A stretch of 64,000 nucleotides of DNA from an uncultured Bacteroidota bacterium (lineage in GTDB: Bacteria > Bacteroidota > Ignavibacteria > Kryptoniales > JAKASW01), in assembly GCA_963768145.1 (NCBI GenBank), contig CAVYHK010000034.1, forward strand, positions 40,537-104,536. The letters are read 5' to 3'. The notes beneath the pieces are model-generated. The model was given only the letters and a program-made list of their open reading frames with translations. It made no database searches and was not told the origin of the DNA. This document shows, one piece after another, positions 3,839-49,920 of this stretch. A program made the position numbers and the translations under genes. Within the stretch, counting starts at the first letter, position 1. Every line of letters starts with the position of its first letter.

Positions 3839-6709
3839 CTATCGCTTGATCTCTTTCTCTTTACCATCATAGCTAACACTTCTTGCCGATTTGGTAACTG
3901 CTCCAAATGCTGCCGGTTCTTCCTTTGAGATTATGACGATGTTGAACGACCTGTTGCCTATCATCCCGGCAAAACTCCCATTTCGTCTCCCGATCGTGAG
4001 GATTTGCGTCGCTTCGTCCCATTTGAAATCTATCGTGGAGTACATTCCTTTTTGAAAGTCGTTATTTTCGTTTTCATCTTCATAGAGGGTGAATTCAGCA
4101 TTTTTGCCGGCGTAGACATATAGCGTTATTGTCCCGTCAGTTTTTTCTTCAGCGTACTGGATCTGGGGGCCAACTGGAATTATCGAGCCTTGACGTACAA
4201 ACAAAGGAATCTTGTCCAAAGATGCTTGGGCTGTCACAGTTTGCCCGCCGACGTAATGCTTCCCTGTGTGGAAATCATACCATCCACATGCACTTGGCAA
4301 GTAGACATTTTTAGTCCGCTCCTTGTAGGTAGTAACCGGGGCGACAAGCAACGATGGACCAAACATGTATTCATCGGAGAGATTCTCGACATTTTTGTCA
4401 TCCGAAAAATCCATTTCAAGAGCGCGCATTATGGTGTAGTCCTTCCAGTAGACCATGCCGGCCAACGAATAAATGTAGGGCATCAGTCTGTAGCGGAGTT
4501 TAGTCACGCCAACCATCGCTGCGTACTCGGGCGTTCCTTCTGGAGCGACGTTGAAAATCTCCCTGAATGGGTATTCTCCGTGCGATCGGTACAGCGGACA
4601 GAATGCGCCAAACTCATACCAGCGTGTCAAAAGCTCGCGCCATTCGTCTAAATCAGCACCTTTGGCGTTGATGAATCTGTTCGGAACTGCGAAACCTCCG
4701 ATGTCGAAAGTCCAGTAGGGGAGACCGGACATAGAATAATTTAAACCAGCAGCAAGTTGTCCTTTCAGATCTTCCCACGTCGAACCGATGTCACCGCTCC
4801 ATACTGCAACACCGTATCGCTGCGAGCCCGCATAGGCCGACCGACTGAGGATGACTACCCGCTCGTTCGGGTTTTCCGACATCAGACCTTCGTATATACC
4901 ACGGCAATGCTCCAGAGCATACGCGTTGAAAAACTCTGCTCCCGGACCAAGAGATGTGGGATCCATGATATATTTTCTCGCATCCATCGACAAGTTCGAC
5001 TGCATGTCTGGCTCATCCGAATCGATCCACCAGGCATCGATCCCAATCGGATAAAGCTTTTCGTCGACCATCTGCCAGAACAATTTACGCGCATCCGGGT
5101 TGAATGCATCGTAGAAAGTCGAGAGATATCCTCTCCCCACCCAATCTCTGTTGTTCAGATTCAGGTTGCCCATGTAGAGATAGCCCTTATTCATCATCCT
5201 GTCAAAGTTCCTGATGCCTTTGTAGAATTTCGCCCAGACGGATATCATTATATGCTCGTGAAGCTTGTGAACTTCATCGACCATGGCCTCTGGATTGGGA
5301 TAACGGGCGCTGTCGAAAGCCATACTGCCCCATTGGTCTTCGGGCCAGTAAAACCAATCCTGCACGATATTGTCAAAGGGTATCTTGAGCTTGCGATACT
5401 GGCGCGCCACCTGCAGAAGCTGGTCCTGTGTCTGGTATCGTTCTCGACTTTGCCAGAATCCGAATGCCCACTCAGGCAGGAGTGAAGCTCTTCCCGTCAA
5501 TTGACGATATCCGCTTATAACTTCATCGATGTCATGTCCATAAATGAAATAATAGTCAATTTGATTCCCATATTCTGAATACAGAGAAAGATTATTTTGT
5601 TCCTCCTCGCTGATTGGAGTCTTGACCTTCAGCGAGATATAGGCTTCTCTGTCCCCCGGAGTCCATTCGATGCGGATGGGATATTTCCGTCCCTTTTCGA
5701 GTTGAAGACTGAAAAGGTAAACGAACGCGTTCCATGATTGTCTCCAGCGGTCAACAATCAGTTTGTTGTCGATCCACATTCTGCAATGGCCTGAAGAATA
5801 AAGACGGAATTTGAAAAGTCCACTTGTTGAAGTTCCCATCGGTGGGAAATCCGGCTCGAAGAAGCCATTCCAAACGACGACTCCTTTCGCGAGCGAATAG
5901 CCGGCAGGAAATTTCTTCAAATCCGACGAGAATTCGTAATTGATATCCGACTCGTTCCTGATGACGGACACTTTCGACGTGTCGGGTGATTCACAGTAAG
6001 TTGCAGATAAGCCTCCTTCTTTGCCATTTGCATCATATAGTGTCATTGTTGACAAAGAATCATACTCTCTTGGGTTACCGAATTTTGTTCGCGAATAATT
6101 GTCCCAGAGTATTCCATAATTTCTGTTTGAGATGACGAATGGGATTGAGATTTTGGTGTTATACTGGTACAGGTCGACATCCTGACCTTTGTAGTTGAAC
6201 AGACCTTCCTGGTGTTGACCGAGTCCGTAGAATGCTTCGTCAGTCGGCGATTCGAACTGCTGACGTATTCTGAATAACTTCTTGCCCTCAATCATGACCG
6301 GTGCCAATGTCTTACCTCCGTTTCTAAGCTCCGAAAGAATTGGTCTCCCACCCGAATCGCAGAACGCCAGCGCGCCAGTGTTGGTAGAAATCTCTAGCCG
6401 CAATGAAGAAGTCCTGAGGGCAAGAGTGTCACCAGATTCTTCAGTTGCGAATTTCACTACAGGGGATTCCTTCTGTTCGATCATTAGACTCTGAACATCA
6501 AGAAATGAATCGGAGTTTACTGCAGTCACGCGGATAATCCTGTCGGTGACCGGTTCGATCCGAAGAAGTTTGGCGCCGTTTGCCACGGTATCCGTGAGCG
6601 TAATTATGACGCCATTCTTGGTTAAATGATACGGTTTTTGAGCAAATGCCGTCAAGAACGAGACACCCAACAAGAAGACAATCGATAATCTCATTTTAAT
6701 GTACCTCAA
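3839..6709 (-). CDS. Secreted glycoside hydrolase family 31 (alpha-xylosidase/alpha-glucosidase type) with PA14-like insert
   Basis: Signal peptide (MRLSIVFLLGVSFLTAFAQ). GH31 nucleophile motif GIDAWWIDSDEPD, plus WAFGFWQSRERY and YWTFDIGGF. There is a PA14-like segment around residues 230-350. Confidence 0.9.
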   Translation of the reverse strand: MRYIKMRLSIVFLLGVSFLTAFAQKPYHLTKNGVIITLTDTVANGAKLLRIEPVTDRIIRVTAVNSDSFLDVQSLMIEQKESPVVKFATEESGDTLALRTSSLRLEISTNTGALAFCDSGGRPILSELRNGGKTLAPVMIEGKKLFRIRQQFESPTDEAFYGLGQHQEGLFNYKGQDVDLYQYNTKISIPFVISNRNYGILWDNYSRTKFGNPREYDSLSTMTLYDANGKEGGLSATYCESPDTSKVSVIRNESDINYEFSSDLKKFPAGYSLAKGVVVWNGFFEPDFPPMGTSTSGLFKFRLYSSGHCRMWIDNKLIVDRWRQSWNAFVYLFSLQLEKGRKYPIRIEWTPGDREAYISLKVKTPISEEEQNNLSLYSEYGNQIDYYFIYGHDIDEVISGYRQLTGRASLLPEWAFGFWQSRERYQTQDQLLQVARQYRKLKIPFDNIVQDWFYWPEDQWGSMAFDSARYPNPEAMVDEVHKLHEHIMISVWAKFYKGIRNFDRMMNKGYLYMGNLNLNNRDWVGRGYLSTFYDAFNPDARKLFWQMVDEKLYPIGIDAWWIDSDEPDMQSNLSMDARKYIMDPTSLGPGAEFFNAYALEHCRGIYEGLMSENPNERVVILSRSAYAGSQRYGVAVWSGDIGSTWEDLKGQLAAGLNYSMSGLPYWTFDIGGFAVPNRFINAKGADLDEWRELLTRWYEFGAFCPLYRSHGEYPFREIFNVAPEGTPEYAAMVGVTKLRYRLMPYIYSLAGMVYWKDYTIMRALEMDFSDDKNVENLSDEYMFGPSLLVAPVTTYKERTKNVYLPSACGWYDFHTGKHYVGGQTVTAQASLDKIPLFVRQGSIIPVGPQIQYAEEKTDGTITLYVYAGKNAEFTLYEDENENNDFQKGMYSTIDFKWDEATQILTIGRRNGSFAGMIGNRSFNIVIISKEEPAAFGAVTKSARSVSYDGKEKEIKR

Positions 6710-7157
6710 GTGCTAATCAGAGATTTGGCAAGAATAGAGACAGGAGCGCTTCCACAATGACGCAACGCCTCACAAATTCATGTCCATGATTCAGATGCAA
6801 AGTTAATCACCCTGCGCATCAAACAAAATGACCGACACTATATCGTTTCGCAATTGCCTTTGTTCCCGTTCGACCATTGATTTTAGCCGACTGTTGAAGG
6901 GGTCTGCCTCTGGTTAATTGGCAAATAGTTTCAACCGCAGTAACGGAAGAAAGGATTTGCGGCTTAGAATTCTCACGTGAACAGATCTTCGTTTGACGGC
7001 CATAAGATTCATCCGTTCGAATCTTTGCCGGAGACGTGCTTCTTGTTCCTTCATTAATTACATTTAGCAGTATTCCTTGAGGTAAGCTCTGCACAGAGAG
7101 GCAGTGCTCAATGATTCTAAGTTCAACTAATAAAAGGCATTAGTGGAGGTTACAAAT

Positions 7158-7562
7158 ATGGAAGTACATGTAAATTACCTGGCTGTGATTGTCGCCGCGA
7201 TCATCAATTATGTTATTGCCACGATATGGTACGCGGCGATTTTCGGCAAGGTCTGGTCGAGACTCACCGGCATAACAGAAATGAAGCCGGCACCGCTGAA
7301 CATCGTTCTGGTTTTTGCCGGATCTTTGGTGATGAGTTACGTTCTTTGTCATTCGATTGCGTTCGGCAACTATTACGTCGGAACATCAGGTATCGGCGGA
7401 GGATTGATGGGAGGATTCTTCAGTTGGCTTGGGTTTATTGCGCCCGTAACCTTGAGCACCAAGCTCTACGAGAAGAAACCGTGGGGACTTTGGCTTCTCG
7501 ATAACGGATTCTGGCTCATTTCATTGCTGGTGATGGGCTCGATCCTGTCATCGTGGACGTGA
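7158..7562 (+). CDS. DUF1761 family membrane protein
   Basis: MEVHVNYLAVIVAAIINYVIATIWYAAIFGKVW is the typical DUF1761 N-terminus. GGAGG lies 9 nt upstream of the ATG at 7158, and the ORF track starts at GTG 7143. Confidence 0.6.
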   Translation: MEVHVNYLAVIVAAIINYVIATIWYAAIFGKVWSRLTGITEMKPAPLNIVLVFAGSLVMSYVLCHSIAFGNYYVGTSGIGGGLMGGFFSWLGFIAPVTLSTKLYEKKPWGLWLLDNGFWLISLLVMGSILSSWT

Positions 7563-7600
7563 CGCCAGCCGCAACTTAGGCAATTGCAGCGTAGATTGGA

Positions 7601-7630
7601 GGAGTCGAGAACCCTCGACTCCTCTCTTTG
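7601..7630 (+). terminator. Intrinsic terminator after the DUF1761 gene
   Basis: Perfect 9-bp stem GGAGTCGAG / CTCGACTCC (7601-7609 / 7614-7622) with loop AACC, followed by TCTCTTTGG. Confidence 0.6.
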
Positions 7631-7824
7631 GATTCAGGATAATGTCCGCAGCGGGCTGAGCAAGAAAAAAGAGTGGAGTCTTCAATTACCGCATTTTTGT
7701 GTCAATCCCGGAAGTCCAGTATTTGCAGCAGTTTCAAACTCAGGTTCAAATGGGACGAATACCGGATCGCCAAAGTTTCTAAAAACAGCTGGCTACGGCG
7801 GCGTGAAGAGATGGTCGAAAGGAG

Positions 7825-9384
7825 CTAGCGTCCACTCGAAATCTTGAAAAGGTTGAATTCAGAATTGGATGTCAACTTCTCGCCATTGAAGTTCGGATTT
7901 CGAGAAACAGCGTACGTGGCTTCTTCACGGGTTGTGAACCAGCTTCCTGAAAGGAAAAAATCGATGGCGTGGGTGGAAAAGCCCACTATTTTCTCGCGAT
8001 CGCCGTCAATATACACCTTACTGTTGTCCGGCAGGTGGTCGCGAATGTTTTGGAACTGGGCTGTAATCTGGTTCACATTTGAAGCGGGCGTTTTGAGATG
8101 ATTTGAGATAGAGATACTGACCAACAGTGCGATTGCAACATCTATCGCAAGCACCTTCCAAGTTGTTGGATTCATGTGCGATAATAGCAATACGTACACG
8201 CTTAGCACAAATCCCACATAGAACATGGATTGGAACTCATGCAGAGCCACAAAGCGTCTCATCGGAATTGCCCAAATCAAGCCGGAGAATACCATGACAA
8301 GGTGCACTTTGTTGCCGGGATTTCCGTCTTTCAAATACCTGAGCAAATTGTAAACGATCAACGATGCCACAACAAACACCGAAGCACTTGTGCCAGGTTC
8401 TACCTGGAAAATTGGCCAAAAGGGGACAAGCATCAAGGCGATTGAGTGCGCTTGCCCAGGAAGAAAACTAATCCAATCGAATGTCCACGCGAGCTGAGTA
8501 TGTCCGGCAGTCGATGCTATCCCGGTTCTCCATAGTGCACTGTTTACACTTGGCAAATCCACAAAATGGCCTCCTATGATTCTCCATTCATTCAATAGCT
8601 GAAATCCAAGGACGCAGATTCCCCATGCAACAGCCAACGATGTAATAACAAATGAAGGCTTCTTAAAGAGACCCAAGGCTTTCCTTCCAGCACGTACTTT
8701 CTTCCTAAGCAGGAGTTCGATGCCTTCTATTAAAGCCCAAGTCACGTAAACAGCATAGGGCTGCCATCCAAGACTTGCCGGGAACAATGCGTAGATCAAG
8801 ATTTGCGACGTTTTAAGCTCCGTTTTCTGTGCCATCACAACGGCACGCAACGCAATCACAAATCCTAAAAGCGCTGGCACGTCATTGAATATTATGTCGT
8901 TGTAAGAGACCATGTAGTACGACGAAAACGCCAGAAGAGCGACTGACAGAGCCAAGTACTTGCTCTTGACAAATTCATCCACCAGCAAAAATACGACAAT
9001 GATGGCGAGGAAGAAGAAAAGAATCATTAATTGGCGAGCAACATATATCTGAAGAGCCAAATGGTTCTCGAATGGGTAGGTCAATAAACCCGTCAAGAGA
9101 AAAGGAAATACGGGAAACCTGTTATAAGCATCGTAAGTGGGCCTGCCATCATGCAACTCTTTGCTTGCGAAAACGAACAGCGGATGATTACCAGTCATAA
9201 GGCTGTTCGACAGAGCAAGGCCATGAAACGAATTGCCGGCGTATAGTCCCCCTGCGACAAATGCTCCATGACGACTCTCGGTTAGAAACATGCACACTCC
9301 GACGAGCATCAACAAAACAAATGGAAGCCAAACATCAGATCGTTTGTTTTCCTGTGGAGTCGTTTCAGCAGCGTTTTCAGTCAT
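7825..9384 (-). CDS. Large polytopic membrane protein, GT-C (ArnT/PMT-like glycosyltransferase) fold suspected
   Basis: 519 aa with more than 10 hydrophobic segments and a soluble C-terminal tail. No diagnostic motif recognised, so the family is a guess. Confidence 0.35.
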   Translation of the reverse strand: MTENAAETTPQENKRSDVWLPFVLLMLVGVCMFLTESRHGAFVAGGLYAGNSFHGLALSNSLMTGNHPLFVFASKELHDGRPTYDAYNRFPVFPFLLTGLLTYPFENHLALQIYVARQLMILFFFLAIIVVFLLVDEFVKSKYLALSVALLAFSSYYMVSYNDIIFNDVPALLGFVIALRAVVMAQKTELKTSQILIYALFPASLGWQPYAVYVTWALIEGIELLLRKKVRAGRKALGLFKKPSFVITSLAVAWGICVLGFQLLNEWRIIGGHFVDLPSVNSALWRTGIASTAGHTQLAWTFDWISFLPGQAHSIALMLVPFWPIFQVEPGTSASVFVVASLIVYNLLRYLKDGNPGNKVHLVMVFSGLIWAIPMRRFVALHEFQSMFYVGFVLSVYVLLLSHMNPTTWKVLAIDVAIALLVSISISNHLKTPASNVNQITAQFQNIRDHLPDNSKVYIDGDREKIVGFSTHAIDFFLSGSWFTTREEATYAVSRNPNFNGEKLTSNSEFNLFKISSGR

Positions 9385-45216: not shown

Positions 45217-46515
45217 ATGAAACCCAAATTACGAGTATTACTCTCTTTTTCCCTTCTCATGGGAATCCAATTGTCGTTAGGATGTTCACAAGCTCGCGCC
45301 CAGTCGGCTACGAGTCAGATGACAAGCTCCGAGTTCAGCAACTGGGAGCCTAAGGGCTTTTCGGATTCGCAGTTCAGCCTTCTCTGGGATGCATATAACA
45401 CGAAGTCGGACAGTCTTCTCGCAAAGTTTTTTAATAGTTGGAGACTTGAAACTCAAATCGTGGAGGAGCCAATACTCGAAACGCCGGTTGACGACGCGAT
45501 TGCTTCTCTTTTCATTTTTCTCCTGAACACCGATTTCCAAGATTCCAACTATCCCTACAAGTATGCCGTAATCCAAAATCAAATTGAGGCAACCGTGCCT
45601 TCTGCTTTAGGGATTCAGCAAGAGGAGTACGTACTTAACAATTTTCATCCAGAATCGAATAGTCCTTATCGTCCAATCTTGATAATGTTGGACGACAAGC
45701 GGAATGTCATGCTCGGTGAATTTCTTGGAGACTGGTCGGTGGTCAAAGCAGAAGAAGCGCAGGAGTTTTTTGGAAAATACGTTCCATTTGGAGCAGACGT
45801 TTACTACGCCAACCAACAAGCGGATTGGGCATTGCTAAGGCATTGGTACTCATTTGCGTTCACATCAGATCTGCAAGAAGCAAATGTTACAGATGAGACT
45901 CCGACCGAGACCGTCACATATACCTGCATTGTTGGGCGGGACGGAAACTGGATCAAAGTCCCTGAAGTACCGATCATAATGCCTCCGGTCCCCCCGCCAG
46001 AACCACCTATGCCTCCGCCAGAGCCGACGCCCGAACCGCCGCCAAGTCCACCGCATCCTCCGCGGCCGCCACATCCGTCACCCCCGACTCCTATTGTTCC
46101 AGCTCCGACGCCTGCCCCGAAGCCGGCCCCCGAACCGCCGCATCGCCCCCGTCCGACGACACCGGTCCCGCCGACTTCTCCGACAAATCCAATTGATGTC
46201 GGTCGCCCGCGGCCAGTCACACATCCCGTGGACAATCCGACGTCTCCTCAAGTGCCCGCTGAGCCGGCTCGGCCGAGGCCAACCGTGCCAACGACACAAG
46301 AACCAACATCGCCCGTAGCTACACCAGAACAACGGCAAAGGGGAGATCAACCACAAGTGAACACCACGCCGCCGCCACAGGCGTCTCCGGAGCGTCCTCA
46401 GAGTGTCCAACCGGCAGAGGAGAATCAGACGACACCTCAGATCTCTCCTCCGTCGAATGCTGCAAAGCCTTCGCCGCCACCGGATCAAAAGAAGGACCAA
46501 CAGAGGCCGCAATAA
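45217..46515 (+). CDS. Lipoprotein with extremely proline-rich C-terminal half
   Basis: Lipobox LSLGC|S with GGAGG upstream. About 230 aa of globular sequence is followed by about 190 aa of PxP/PT low complexity. Confidence 0.5.
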   Translation: MKPKLRVLLSFSLLMGIQLSLGCSQARAQSATSQMTSSEFSNWEPKGFSDSQFSLLWDAYNTKSDSLLAKFFNSWRLETQIVEEPILETPVDDAIASLFIFLLNTDFQDSNYPYKYAVIQNQIEATVPSALGIQQEEYVLNNFHPESNSPYRPILIMLDDKRNVMLGEFLGDWSVVKAEEAQEFFGKYVPFGADVYYANQQADWALLRHWYSFAFTSDLQEANVTDETPTETVTYTCIVGRDGNWIKVPEVPIIMPPVPPPEPPMPPPEPTPEPPPSPPHPPRPPHPSPPTPIVPAPTPAPKPAPEPPHRPRPTTPVPPTSPTNPIDVGRPRPVTHPVDNPTSPQVPAEPARPRPTVPTTQEPTSPVATPEQRQRGDQPQVNTTPPPQASPERPQSVQPAEENQTTPQISPPSNAAKPSPPPDQKKDQQRPQ

Positions 46516-46666
46516 TTGCTTTGAAATCGTCACCCCATGTTGAGGTCACGCGCTTCGTGATCTTGACATGATCGTTTTTTTCATGGTTGTTGATTGCATC
46601 CTTTTCACCGACTAAGTTAACTGACGTATTCTAAACTCACGTTCAGAAGGAATTTCGAATCGTACC

Positions 46667-47089
46667 ATGAAGAATAGAACCCACACTCGCGCAGCCAATG
46701 ATTCCGACCTTTCCGGACTCACCCTACTCGGCAAAGGAACCAAGCCCCAGAAGAAACTTGAGACTTTCCCCAATCATCATGCTGGCCGTAATTATGTTGT
46801 CACTCTGCGAACAGAGGAATTCACCTGCGTTTGCCCGGCGACCGGACAGCCTGATTTCGGGAAGTTGACCATCCAGTATGTTCCAGACAAAAGGATAGTT
46901 GAGTCAAAATCGTTGAAGCTCTATCTCTGGTCGTATCGCAACGAGGGCATATTCCATGAACATGTTGCAAACATGATTCTAGATGATCTTGTTAAAGCAC
47001 TGGCACCTCGATGGTGCAAAGTCACGGCGGAATTTGCCGTGCGCGGAGGAATATCAATTACCGTCGAGGCAGAGCACGGGGCAAAGTGA
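46667..47089 (+). CDS. queF: NADPH-dependent 7-cyano-7-deazaguanine (preQ0) reductase, unimodular type
   Basis: Catalytic Cys context EFTCVCPATGQPDFG and the QueF motif ESKSLKLYLWSYRN. Confidence 0.9.
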   Translation: MKNRTHTRAANDSDLSGLTLLGKGTKPQKKLETFPNHHAGRNYVVTLRTEEFTCVCPATGQPDFGKLTIQYVPDKRIVESKSLKLYLWSYRNEGIFHEHVANMILDDLVKALAPRWCKVTAEFAVRGGISITVEAEHGAK

Positions 47090-47189
47090 GGCACAATTCG
47101 ATTCAGGAAGAGAGGTGGCCCGCGCAATCTCATCGCGGACGTGACTTTAACGGAAGGGGATATGCGCTGTAGCCATACACACGATCTTG

Positions 47190-47276
47190 TGCCGAGAGCG
47201 GGAATCGAACCCGCACGAGGGGTTAAGCCTCGCTGGATTTTGAGTCCAGTGCGTCTACCAGTTCCGCCATCTCGGC
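47190..47276 (-). tRNA. tRNA-Leu (anticodon CAA), long variable arm, no encoded CCA
   Basis: Manual cloverleaf on the minus strand: acceptor GCCGAGA/TCTCGGC, anticodon stem CTGGA/TCCAG with loop CTCAAAA, variable arm CGAGG-CTTAACC-CCTCG, T-arm GCGGG-TTCGATT-CCCGC, discriminator A. Confidence 0.9.
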
Positions 47277-47755
47277 AGAGAAAAAAACCTTGTCAGCATG
47301 CCCAAAGACTGCAAGCTTAGCACACGAGGAGGTTAAGCCTCGTCCCGACAAAATTCCATTCTGTCGGGATGCGTCTACCAGTTCCGCCATCTCGGCAGAG
47401 AAAAAAACCTTGTCAGCATGCCCAAAGACTGCAAGCTTAGCACACGAGGAGGTTAAGCCTCGTCCCGACAAAATTCCATTCTGTCGGGATGCGTCTACCA
47501 GTTCCGCCATCTCGGCAGAGAAAAAAACCTTGTCAGCATGCCCAAAGACTGCAAGCTTAGCACACGAGGAGGTTAAGCCTCGTCCCGACAAAATTCCATT
47601 CTGTCGGGATGCGTCTACCAGTTCCGCCATCTCGGCAGAGAAAAAACCTTGTCAGCATGCGCAAAGACCGCAAGCTTAGCGCGCGAGGAGGTTAAGCCTC
47701 GTCCCGACAAAATTCCATTCTGTCGGGATGCGTCTACCAGTTCCGCCATCTCGGC
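47277..47755 (-). repeat. Four tandem 119-120 nt tRNA-Leu-derived chimeric units
   Basis: Units at 47277-47396, 47397-47516 and 47517-47636 are identical. The unit at 47637-47755 has 4 substitutions and one fewer T/A. Each unit shares nt 1-27 and the variable arm with the adjacent tRNA-Leu. Confidence 0.95.
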
Positions 47756-47764
47756 GCGCTTGAG

Positions 47765-47792
47765 AATATAACATTTCTGAAGAATTCGTAAA
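47765..47792 (-). promoter_or_regulatory. Candidate sigma70-like promoter reading into the repeat array and tRNA-Leu
   Basis: Minus strand: TTTACG (47792-47787), 16 nt, TATATT (47770-47765), 9 nt before the first GCCGAG of the distal unit. No comparable motif precedes the inner units or the tRNA. Confidence 0.3.
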
Positions 47793-48211
47793 AGGACTTT
47801 GACTACATCGAGGTTGTTCAACAGACACTCACAAAACATTTAGGGCCCGTTATTCGCCACACAACCGCTACATTTCATACAATCTCACGCCACGCAACTA
47901 TGACGAGAGGTGTCACTTGATGTCGATTAATTATGGTGTGGTTAAATGGAAATGTAACCTCCAATGGCTATCCTAACGCGCCGAACAATAGCGGCATCGC
48001 AAAGCATCCAGACACTGCAGGAGGAGTCTTACTTTTCCTCGACAGCTTCGCGCCCTTGGAGAGAAACTTGACCTGTGTGTGATCTGCAGGTTTTAAAGTG
48101 CACGTTCCCATGCGATTGTAGATTGCGTTTTAGAAAGCCGAGAGCTAAATTCTCCCTGACGTTTGGCGGATTGCTACTCTGTTGTCTGAAAATTTGGAAG
48201 GGAAAGCCGAT

Positions 48212-49920
48212 ATGTTTCTCAAAACCACAATTTTTTTAATCGGGGGACTGTGCATGATAGGTCACCATGAAATACTTGCCCAGAAGCTTGAATCCGGTCC
48301 ACAAGTACTAACGATTTTTTCGAACGTGGACGATTCCGAACAGCCTTATGGACTTTACCTCCCGAAGCATTTCAATCCGTCAAAAAAATATCCGCTTGTG
48401 ATCATGCTTCACGGAGCATACTCGAATCATCGACTGGCCCTCAGGCGGGTTTTTGGCCGAAGCAACATCAACGCCGAGACGGATGTCGAAGCATCACGGT
48501 ACTTTCCACGGTGGCGTGACATTAATTACATAGTGGCTACACCACTAGCACGAGGTACAATGGGCTACCAGGGGATTGCAGAGAAAGACGTGTGCGATGT
48601 TCTCACCGATGTCGAAAAACGATTCCCTATCGACAAAGATCGGGTGTATTTGACCGGTTTGTCGATGGGTGGCGGTGGCACCCTATGGTTGGGATTGACC
48701 CGACCGGATATTCTGGGCGGCAATCGCTCCAGTCTGTCCCGCGCCTCCCGCCGAGTCAAAGGATTTCGCACCCAATGCCTTGAACTTCCCTGTATCCTTC
48801 CACCAAGGTGGGGCAGATCCTGTGGTAAATCCGCAGGGGACCCGTGATTGGGCCAAATTGCTAAAAGACTTAGGAACGATGACGCCATACACCGAGTATC
48901 CGGGCGTTGGACACAATAGCTGGGAGGAAGCATACAAGGACGAAGAGATCTTCAAGTGGTTTTCAAAATTTCGACGCAATCCTTTGCCGAATCGCGTCCG
49001 CTTCGTCACCGACCGGTACAAGTACAACTCTGCATATTGGGTAACAATTGACGAACTCATACCGGGGACATTCGCAAGTGTAGATGCAAAATTCACTGGG
49101 ATGAACAGAATGGAAATACAGACATCCAATCTTCGCGCGTTCACACTAGAACTAAAGGGGCATCCAAAATTCAGAATCTAATAAGGCCACAGCAGTCGCG
49201 ATTGATGGAAGTGTTTTGACGGCAAGAACGAGAGATTCGATCACATTTGTCTTGCAAGACAGCACTTGGACAACAAGCACAAAGCCCTTCGTGCTCCCGC
49301 CAAGTGTGAAAGGCCCGAAAGCTGAAGGACCAATCTCCGAGGCTTTTGCCAGCCGGCACATTTACGTATATGGAACAGGAGGGAATCCATCACCGCAAGA
49401 AATGGTAGCACGGCGTTCCATCGCAGCGGACGCCGCGAAATGGCAGGCTCCATCTCCATTACTCTTTTTTCCACGAGTTGTCTCGGACAGAGAAGTGAGA
49501 CCAAGCGATATCGAGACCTCCAACCTAATTCTGTTCGGGACGAGTGAGACGAACAGCATCATCAAGAAATTCGCTGACCAGCTGCCGATTCAACTTACTG
49601 GAGCGGACAGCAGCTACGGGCTCGTGTATATCCACCCCGAAGGGGAGCACTATATCGTGGTCTGCTCTGGGAAGCCATGGTGGACAAGGGACGGAACCAA
49701 TCACCCCAATGCATCACGCGGCGGTTTCCGCTTCTTTTCTGGTCCCGTGAGCATGCTGATGGGACTAGGGGATTTTTCAATGTACAAGAATTCACTTGAT
49801 AAAGTCGTTGCGTCAGGAGTGTTCGACAACGAATGGCGGCTATCGAAGGCTGATTCAGCTAAGATGGATTCTACGGGTTGTGTCAAGATCAATGATAACA
49901 AGACAGAAAAACGCAAATGA
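48212..49920 (+). CDS. Secreted alpha/beta-hydrolase (esterase/S9-like) with C-terminal extension, two single-base frameshifts
   Basis: Signal peptide, HG..., and nucleophile elbow GLSMGGGG. ORFs 48182..48847, 48780..49181 and 49216..49920 join as ..RPDI|WAAIAPVCP.. (around 48710-48713) and ..KGHP..|SESNKATAVAIDG.. (runs at 49157-49169). Confidence 0.65.

Follow-up and report, generated by a model that had tools for sequence, protein, structure and literature searches.

Chimeric tRNA-Leu(CAA) fragments in tandem between a predicted promoter and the tRNA gene of a Candidatus Kryptoniota-related bacterium

How does a tRNA gene come to stand behind a row of fragments that resemble it, and do those fragments have a task of their own? 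The question is raised by a 64,000-nucleotide stretch of DNA from an uncultured bacterium of the Bacteroidota (GenBank assembly GCA_963768145.1, contig CAVYHK010000034.1; hereafter, the window), in which, on the minus strand, a promoter-like site is followed by four head-to-tail units (47277-47755) and then by a genuine tRNA-Leu(CAA) gene. Tandem Repeats Finder recovers the region as one tandem array (47250-47755; period 120, 4.2 copies, 98% matches, score 977), and as the sole tandem repeat in the window. The chimeric tRNA-Leu(CAA) fragment that forms the unit is probably, though by no means surely, a recombination or integration scar of the 5′-fragment type, which a sister species has as a single copy and which has been amplified to four in the window. 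A sequence-only reading of the window, made without database searches, had proposed three roles for the units (a family of tRNA-derived small RNAs, serial attenuators or decoys, and a recently amplified recombination scar), and among these the last fits best.

Anatomy of the array

Each unit consists of four parts. The first 27 nt are identical in every unit to nt 1-27 of the adjacent tRNA, that is, to its acceptor 5′ strand and D-arm. They are followed by a 27-nt hairpin (hairpin A, TCCCGACAGAATGGAATTTTGTCGGGA), by a 20-nt patch (V′) that matches the variable arm of the tRNA at 19 of 20 positions with one base extra, and by a T-rich tail of 46 nt (tail B) closing with T7 and then CTCT. Read in permuted order, the junctions run from the end of tail B (...TTTTTTTCTCT) through the tRNA block (GCCGAGATGG...GACGCA) to the start of hairpin A (TCCCGACA...). 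The anticodon arm is thus replaced, the T-arm and the acceptor 3′ strand are absent, and the units are not tRNAs: Infernal gives them no match at E<=10, and ARAGORN calls none. Neither segment A nor segment B significantly resembles the tRNA, its flanks or the upstream spacer. In the window, the hairpin motif and the tail motif are each present in four copies, against 0.00 expected by chance. Hairpin A forms 12 pairs (one of them G-U) around a 3-nt loop, at -15.6 kcal/mol and z = -5.2, while folding of the whole unit is unremarkable (z = -1.3 and -1.65).

Three of the four copies (units 2 to 4; Table 1) are 100% identical over all 120 nt. Unit 1 differs from them by four substitutions and one T fewer, all located in the junction of V′ with tail B and in the tail itself. 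Much of what the sequence-only reading had described is borne out by these results, namely, a four-unit array beside a genuine tRNA-Leu(CAA) gene (Tandem Repeats Finder, ARAGORN and Rfam), units that begin with nt 1-27 of the tRNA, a variable arm with one extra base, three identical copies, and a homology to the tRNA that is split into two blocks by nonhomologous segments. Its exclusion of the usual 3′-end duplication is likewise upheld, as is its dismissal of a CRISPR array, the units abutting head to tail with no spacers and three of them being identical. Two details change, however. The divergent unit, correctly credited with four substitutions and a missing T, is promoter-proximal rather than promoter-distal, and the hairpin given as 8 bp with an 11-nt loop does exist but extends to the 12 pairs and 3-nt loop stated above.

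The only promoter-like site upstream is a predicted TTTACG-16-(TG)TATATT at 47792-47765, and the promoter scan finds no such site within the units, in agreement with the earlier claim that a single sigma70-like promoter lies upstream of the whole array. Since this promoter now stands about 480 nt from the tRNA, the four units would be transcribed from it as a 5′ leader of about 480 nt, which RNase P would be expected to remove when the tRNA matures. The effect of such a leader may at most be passive, in the form of lower or delayed output of tRNA-Leu(CAA).

The locus in related genomes

Relatives were located using queF, the conserved neighbor on the 3′ side of the tRNA, as a synteny anchor; this gene places the organism near metagenome-assembled genomes (MAGs) labeled “Candidatus Kryptoniota / uncultured Bacteroidetes”. 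The order KdpE, Sel1, Pro-rich protein, QueF, tRNA-Leu(CAA) is conserved, and the window shares synteny on both sides (KdpE, Sel1, Pro-rich, QueF ... esterase, PhnD) with two of the fetched loci, L092 and L099. These three are mutually about equidistant, at 83 to 85% nucleotide identity. With matching flanking genes, the copy number of the unit is 0 in L099, 1 in L092 and 4 in the window. In L099, whose QueF belongs to the 90% protein cluster of the window's QueF, the promoter is followed directly by the same tRNA as in the window (tRNA-1), and the synteny runs from QueF to a 568-aa esterase. In L092 (QueF 89% identical at the amino acid level) we observe the promoter, one 120-nt unit, a different tRNA-Leu(CAA) (tRNA-2), a 91-nt spacer, and a 16-nt 3′ remnant of tRNA-1, ATTCCCGCTCTCGGCA. 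The more distant L014 (81%) has the promoter, tRNA-2, spacer and 3′ remnant with no unit. A further group, comprising L003/4/5, L006/7/13 and L015 (81 to 85%; L013 is CAWEES010000002.1 and L015 is OY969800.1), has the promoter box TGTTATATTTTCA about 7 to 10 nt before an identical tRNA-1, again with no unit. The unit is therefore found before either tRNA allele, tRNA-1 in the window and tRNA-2 in L092, and for both alleles tail B abuts the +1 position exactly. Among the loci and collections searched, units are known from these two lineages only.

The presence of the chimeric unit in L092, an independent assembly of a related organism, means that the unit itself is not an assembly artifact; the copy number of four is known from the one assembly that holds the window. 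Compared with L092, unit 1 has three private substitutions and the T deletion, while units 2 to 4 share one derived base, a G at unit position 95. Because unit 1 has changes of its own and the others are identical with a shared G, a history in two steps appears likely. A single scar copy would predate the window genome, or have been exchanged between lineages. In the window lineage, a first duplication would then have separated unit 1 from the ancestor of units 2 to 4, and these three would have arisen very recently by unequal homologous recombination or by replication slippage between direct repeats. The pattern fits such processes, since edge copies escape homogenization. This mode of amplification, as well as the cotranscription of the units, their removal by RNase P and their lack of a dedicated function, is what we infer from the arrangement as a whole.

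How a first copy might have formed is suggested by the relatives. Each unit can be seen as a nonfunctional piece of tRNA-Leu(CAA) embedded in the unrelated hairpin A and tail B, and may represent a displaced 5′ tDNA fragment, left upstream of the intact gene when DNA recombined in from its 5′ side. A covariance model built from the unit (R1), searched against the fetched loci, detects a 5′ fragment of tRNA-Leu(CAA) in L015 that is identical to nt 2-42 of tRNA-1 at 36 of 41 positions, a score equaled by 0 of 1,000 shuffles. This decayed fragment, about 1.6 kb before the intact gene, covers nt 1-44, continuing, unlike the window unit, through the anticodon arm, after which come a hairpin and T9. 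Between the fragment and the gene, immediately ahead of the tRNA promoter, is a truncated tyrosine-integrase C terminus (Phage_integrase, PF00589, 37.5 bits against a cut-off of 27.1; RHAFGTRLITAGADISIVSRILGHSDIKSTMVYAKV...), the stop codon of which is 41 nt upstream of the tRNA. On these sequence features, L015 carries a small decayed island of the rarer 5′-fragment type. Shorter and weaker integrase remnants occupy the equivalent spot in L003-5 and L006/7/13, and the gene content on the promoter side varies between relatives. In L006, for example, a restriction-modification cassette (N6_N4 methyltransferase, a 445-aa protein and a HinfI-like endonuclease) takes the place of the window's esterase and Phn genes. 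We infer that the locus is a recombination or integration hot spot in this clade. An att-site or integrase context in relatives, which according to the sequence-only reading would point to an ordinary integration scar, is present and counts against readings that require a novel element, although it leaves the internal variable-arm patch unexplained.

The promoter is shared more widely than the unit. Its block is identical at 43 of 46 positions between the window and L092, compared with about 62 to 71% for the whole spacer, and the box TGTTATATT(T/C)TCA recurs in L003, L006, L014, L015, L092 and L099. In the relatives without units, TGTTATATT is found about 7 to 10 nt upstream of the mature 5′ end of the tRNA, because of which the natural leader of this tRNA is almost absent there. 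The tRNA-1 sequence is the only tRNA called by ARAGORN in the window and is identical in L003, L006, L015 and L099.

The second allele, a replacement tRNA-Leu(CAA) with a remnant of tRNA-1 behind it, also speaks for a rearrangement hot spot. In L092 and L014, tRNA-2 (GCCGAAGTGG...CCTTCGGCA) is followed by a spacer of 54 to 91 nt and by a 16- to 17-nt 3′ remnant of tRNA-1, ATTCCCGCTCTCGGCA; the two spacers are homologous, and the one in L092 holds TGCGGGTTC, which resembles a T-arm 5′ strand with a 23-nt insertion. Three short-read assemblies of an L092-type organism (L093 and L095 in their last bases, and L094) end either 1 nt before tRNA-2 (T|GCCGAAG) or 15 nt inside it, a hint that the populations sampled are heterogeneous or that repeats immediately precede the tRNA there. 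The Logan contigs L001 and L002, which stem from this organism or one nearly identical to it, end inside the tRNA and are uninformative on the array, and the P0004 contigs stop short of the tRNA.

The two-sided synteny, which on the esterase side too is the same as in L092 and L099, indicates that no island is present at the locus now. The esterase gene is split by two 1-nt insertions (an extra T at about 48711-48713 and an extra A at about 49175) by comparison with L092 and L099, whose 568-aa genes are intact, and is either a real pseudogene or the product of two consensus errors; the other genes checked near the array are intact. Homologues of the esterase (P0126 and P0123) sit in contexts unrelated to the array locus. 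The gene between the Sel1-repeat gene and queF encodes a protein of 432 aa whose C-terminal half is very rich in proline (PPxP repeats); it keeps this position in relatives, and no Pfam hit is recorded for it.

Table 1. Positions of the array, its parts and neighboring features in the window, and of related features in other loci
Locus	Feature	Positions	Strand	Remark
Window	promoter block CAAAGTCCTTTTACGAATTCTTCAGAAATGTTATATTCTCAAGCGC	47756-47801	-	promoter scan and L092 alignment
Window	unit 1	47637-47755	-	119 nt, promoter-proximal, divergent
Window	unit 2	47517-47636	-	120 nt, identical to units 3 and 4
Window	unit 3	47397-47516	-	120 nt, identical to units 2 and 4
Window	unit 4	47277-47396	-	120 nt, adjoins tRNA; R1 score 154.8 bits
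Window	unit 4, tRNA block (nt 1-27)	47396-47370	-	
Window	unit 4, hairpin A	47369-47343	-	
Window	unit 4, variable-arm patch V′	47342-47323	-	
Window	unit 4, tail B	47322-47277	-	T7 then CTCT
Window	tRNA-Leu(CAA), tRNA-1	47189-47276	-	ARAGORN; Rfam RF00005, 61.7 bits
Window	open reading frame MAELVDASRQNG...	47223-47630	-	open through the array
Window	queF (preQ1 synthase)	46667-47089	+	conserved neighbor on tRNA 3′ side
Window	Pro-rich protein gene	45217-46515	+	432 aa
Window	esterase/peptidase gene	48182-49920	+	promoter side, in three frames
L092	alternative allele (tRNA-2, spacer, tRNA-1 3′ remnant)	4525-4717	-	
L092	P0245	4655-4831	-	gene-caller product, 58 aa
L014	alternative allele (tRNA-2, spacer, tRNA-1 3′ remnant)	4206-4362	-	
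L015	integrase remnant	3880-4092	-	PF00589
L015	tRNA-Leu(CAA) 5′ fragment	5436-5524	-	decayed
L006	restriction-modification cassette	4973-8423	+	promoter side

What the units may be

Searches beyond the locus return little. Rfam at E<=10 over 46500-48500 gives the true tRNA and chance hits only. Hairpin A and tail B are found nowhere in the 64-kb window outside the array at up to 3 mismatches, contrary to what a dispersed REP- or MITE-like repeat would show, and in the fetched loci they match nothing except the L092 unit. A REP/RAYT-like element (GTAG and then a hairpin) was dropped as an idea, dispersed copies being found neither in the window nor in the fetched loci, and an iteron, centromere or operator array finds no supporting evidence. 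Two scans of IMG/VR with the exact or loop-degenerate hairpin yield no match, nor do the GTDB species representatives with the pattern “D-arm, 20-45 nt, variable arm”. A scan of JGI metagenomes gives three matches, all by chance in coding DNA, with a pattern that required TGTCGGGA and would miss an L092-type variant. As these collection scans used exact patterns, diverged copies could escape them. By blastn, the 93 non-tRNA bases have short chance matches only among phages and plasmids.

An open reading frame also passes through the array, and stays open because the period of 120 nt equals 3 x 40 nt. A search of protein space with every open frame of the array finds nothing, and HMMER against 1.84 billion representatives returns only P0245 and spurious repeat proteins; P0245 is itself a gene-caller “protein” of 58 aa over the L092 unit and tRNA-2. 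A coding repeat of 40 codons is rejected, given that 10 of about 31 residues in the non-tRNA part differ between the window and L092, mostly through nonsynonymous change, and that it has no homologues. The frame is a likely source of spurious protein entries in annotation.

Several observations weigh against a scar, among them its rate of change. The units of the window and L092 are of equal length and differ at 16 of 120 positions (87% conserved) with no indels, whereas the two genomes differ at 29.6% of 635 fourfold degenerate sites in four flanking genes (QueF, PhnD, Pro-rich protein, Sel1), and the neighboring intergenic spacer is only 62 to 71% identical with 57 gap columns. For the 93 non-tRNA bases, at most 16 changes have a probability of 0.0045, and for the first 27 nt, zero changes have one of 8e-5; L092, moreover, has no nearby tRNA-1 copy that could keep those 27 nt identical by gene conversion. 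Most of the changes affect the loop of hairpin A (GGA to CTC), the V′ loop and tail B, and the stems of both hairpin A and V′ have hardly changed. In addition, a simple one-crossover integration scar would not be expected to contain the internal variable-arm patch, the “island” would measure just 93 bp, and neither an integrase (tblastn in the window) nor any island remnant is found in the window or L092. A source for A and B was not found in the tRNA, both of its flanks, the L092 and L014 spacers, or the flanks of the L015 fragment. The slow divergence suggests either a constraint on RNA or DNA structure or a later horizontal spread of a segment of about 170 bp, which could, for instance, have traveled within the attachment region of an element. 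With only three distinct unit sequences available, the comparison is insufficient to choose between selection and horizontal spread.

Selection would be expected if the unit were a functional, structured leader or small RNA (sRNA) derived from tRNA-Leu, composed of D-arm, long hairpin and variable-arm hairpin, cotranscribed with tRNA-Leu(CAA), released by RNase P and kept under purifying selection, an explanation we regard as unlikely but worth taking seriously. Such an RNA could regulate maturation of the tRNA or, like some sRNAs derived from tRNA spacers, function in trans as a sponge or decoy, and amplification would raise its dose. Besides the indel-free conservation described above, this explanation gains from the first 27 nt being unchanged in L092 despite the different downstream tRNA, from the position of the unit directly behind a strong and conserved predicted promoter, and from substitutions that avoid stems. 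In L092, one change in hairpin A preserves pairing (G-U to A-U) and another breaks a pair, yet the hairpin remains stable at -9.3 kcal/mol (z = -3.1). Against it stands the finding that just two lineages carry the unit, the same-synteny sister L099 and all remoter relatives being without it. Across the three sequences, the main stems (D-stem, hairpin A and V′) show a one-sided change at one pair, the loss of another pair and no double compensatory substitution. Folding of the whole unit is ordinary, no Rfam family matches, a seed in the loop is unlikely because the loop is not conserved, and horizontal spread after the species split explains the slow divergence equally well. The narrower proposal, in which the unit is a bona fide tRNA-Leu-derived noncoding RNA (a “pseudo-tRNA leader”) under selection in two or more species, freed from the tRNA-Leu(CAA) precursor by RNase P and adjusted in dose by amplification, appears decidedly doubtful. 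Such an RNA could, as a decoy, bind a factor that recognizes the tRNA-Leu core, or it could regulate the maturation of tRNA-Leu(CAA) in cis. The proposed family of tRNA-derived small RNAs finds no backing in the absence of internal promoters and of an Rfam family and in the two carrier lineages. If the slow divergence does reflect selection, the unit would be a new tRNA-derived leader RNA.

Other explanations deal with the birth of the unit, its effect on transcription or its reality. A whole tRNA gene may have been duplicated in tandem into a two-gene tRNA-Leu operon, with decay of the upstream copy, gene-conversion patches that kept nt 1-27 and the variable arm, and later amplification; this is quite improbable, and differs from a scar only in the origin of the first copy. 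The unit can indeed be divided into a tRNA-sized body of 98 nt and a spacer of 22 nt, the stretch between the variable arm and “GGGCA” has the same length as in the tRNA (24 nt), the end looks acceptor-3′-like by eye (CTTTGGGCA versus CTCTCGGCA), and comparable arrays of partial tRNA pseudogenes exist in plastids (PMC3786074). However, A and B retain no significant tRNA similarity, and decay by point mutation cannot account for a 27-nt palindrome in place of a 17-nt anticodon arm. L092 has no tRNA-1 donor for gene conversion, and the sequence in both unit 1 and L092 is GCGCA, not GGGCA, which makes the acceptor-like match derived and not ancestral. For the same reason, we rejected the idea that the tail pairs with GCCGAGA in the manner of an acceptor stem, the better-matching GGGCA being derived in units 2 to 4 and missing from unit 1 and L092. 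That the units are serial intrinsic terminators or attenuators which throttle transcription of tRNA-Leu(CAA) is very improbable. Every unit does end in a hairpin-like element with T7 (T6 in unit 1), downstream of the sole promoter, and the bulged hairpin with seven T's that the sequence-only reading took for an intrinsic terminator is present. It is weak, though, at -7.2 kcal/mol, with 169 of 200 shuffles folding at least as well; the best fold of unit 1 is another hairpin that is not beside the T run, and the terminator scan flags none in the window or L092. In L092 the stem is disrupted (CTGACAAGG to CCCACAACG) and the T run interrupted (TTCTTTT), so the proposed terminator is not conserved there, and a tRNA gene behind four efficient terminators in a row would be silenced. 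Hardly credible, finally, is the view that the number of copies, or the perfect identity of three of them, is an assembly or polishing artifact of a long-read metagenome. The related genomes do stem from long-read MAG projects, polishing can homogenize repeat copies, and a neighboring gene has two 1-nt insertions. Yet the chimeric unit recurs in the independent assembly of another sample and species, the array has a distinct edge unit, as expected of a real one, the remaining nearby genes checked are intact, and the 64 kb hold no further tandem repeat.

Relation to known tRNA-fragment arrays and islands

The earlier statement that no described element has such an architecture is too strong, as displaced 5′ tDNA fragments (PMC4383910) and plastid trnF arrays (PMC3786074) are known. 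In the Islander catalogue, a displaced 5′ tDNA fragment is a signature of islands made by tyrosine integrases, which occurs in 159 of 3919 islands and must lie upstream (PMC4383910). The window conforms, in that a fragment with nt 1-27 precedes the intact gene in the same orientation, and its relatives resemble the catalogued islands in their integrase remnants, second 5′ fragment and variable promoter-side genes. Unlike those islands, where an integrase and at least 2 kb lie in between, the window has 93 bp and no integrase. Crossover sites in the catalogue are the anticodon loop, the T loop and the T/acceptor junction, whereas identity in the unit stops at nt 27, before the anticodon stem, and is followed by the internal variable-arm patch. 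The four tandem units, with their identical copies, are also not independent integrations.

Plastid trnF(GAA) arrays of Solanaceae, Brassicaceae and others consist of one to seven partial copies, 5′ of the functional gene and after promoter motifs; their number varies among related taxa, and they are held to be nonfunctional products of duplication or unequal recombination (PMC3786074). The window likewise has tandem partial tRNA copies 5′ of a functional gene, and the number of units varies among related lineages (0, 1 and 4). The parts retained differ: the plastid copies keep the anticodon domain without the acceptor strands, while the units keep the acceptor 5′ strand and D-arm and have the anticodon arm replaced. 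The unit of 120 nt is longer than the 32 to 73 bp of plastid trnF copies, and is found in a free-living bacterium instead of an organelle genome.

In Escherichia coli, the 178-bp repeats of tyrT (rtT RNA) are downstream tandem repeats with short exact 3′-terminal tRNA fragments, cotranscribed and prone to unequal recombination; the window units, by contrast, are 5′ fragments located between promoter and gene. For a functional leader RNA only, the relevant precedent is 3′ETS-leuZ, an sRNA from the transcribed spacer of a tRNA-Leu precursor that is released by tRNA processing, from which the unit differs in being itself tRNA-derived, repeated, and conserved in just two lineages. If the scar explanation is true, the array would provide a clear bacterial example of a tandem tRNA-pseudogene array, would illustrate the rarer 5′-side class of tRNA-gene integration scars in a poorly studied Candidatus Kryptoniota-related lineage, and would show a tRNA gene tolerating about 480 nt of junk between promoter and gene. 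Taken against these systems, it is best placed among the tandem tRNA-pseudogene or tDNA-fragment scars, as a bacterial variant that is new, and not treated as a new kind of system.

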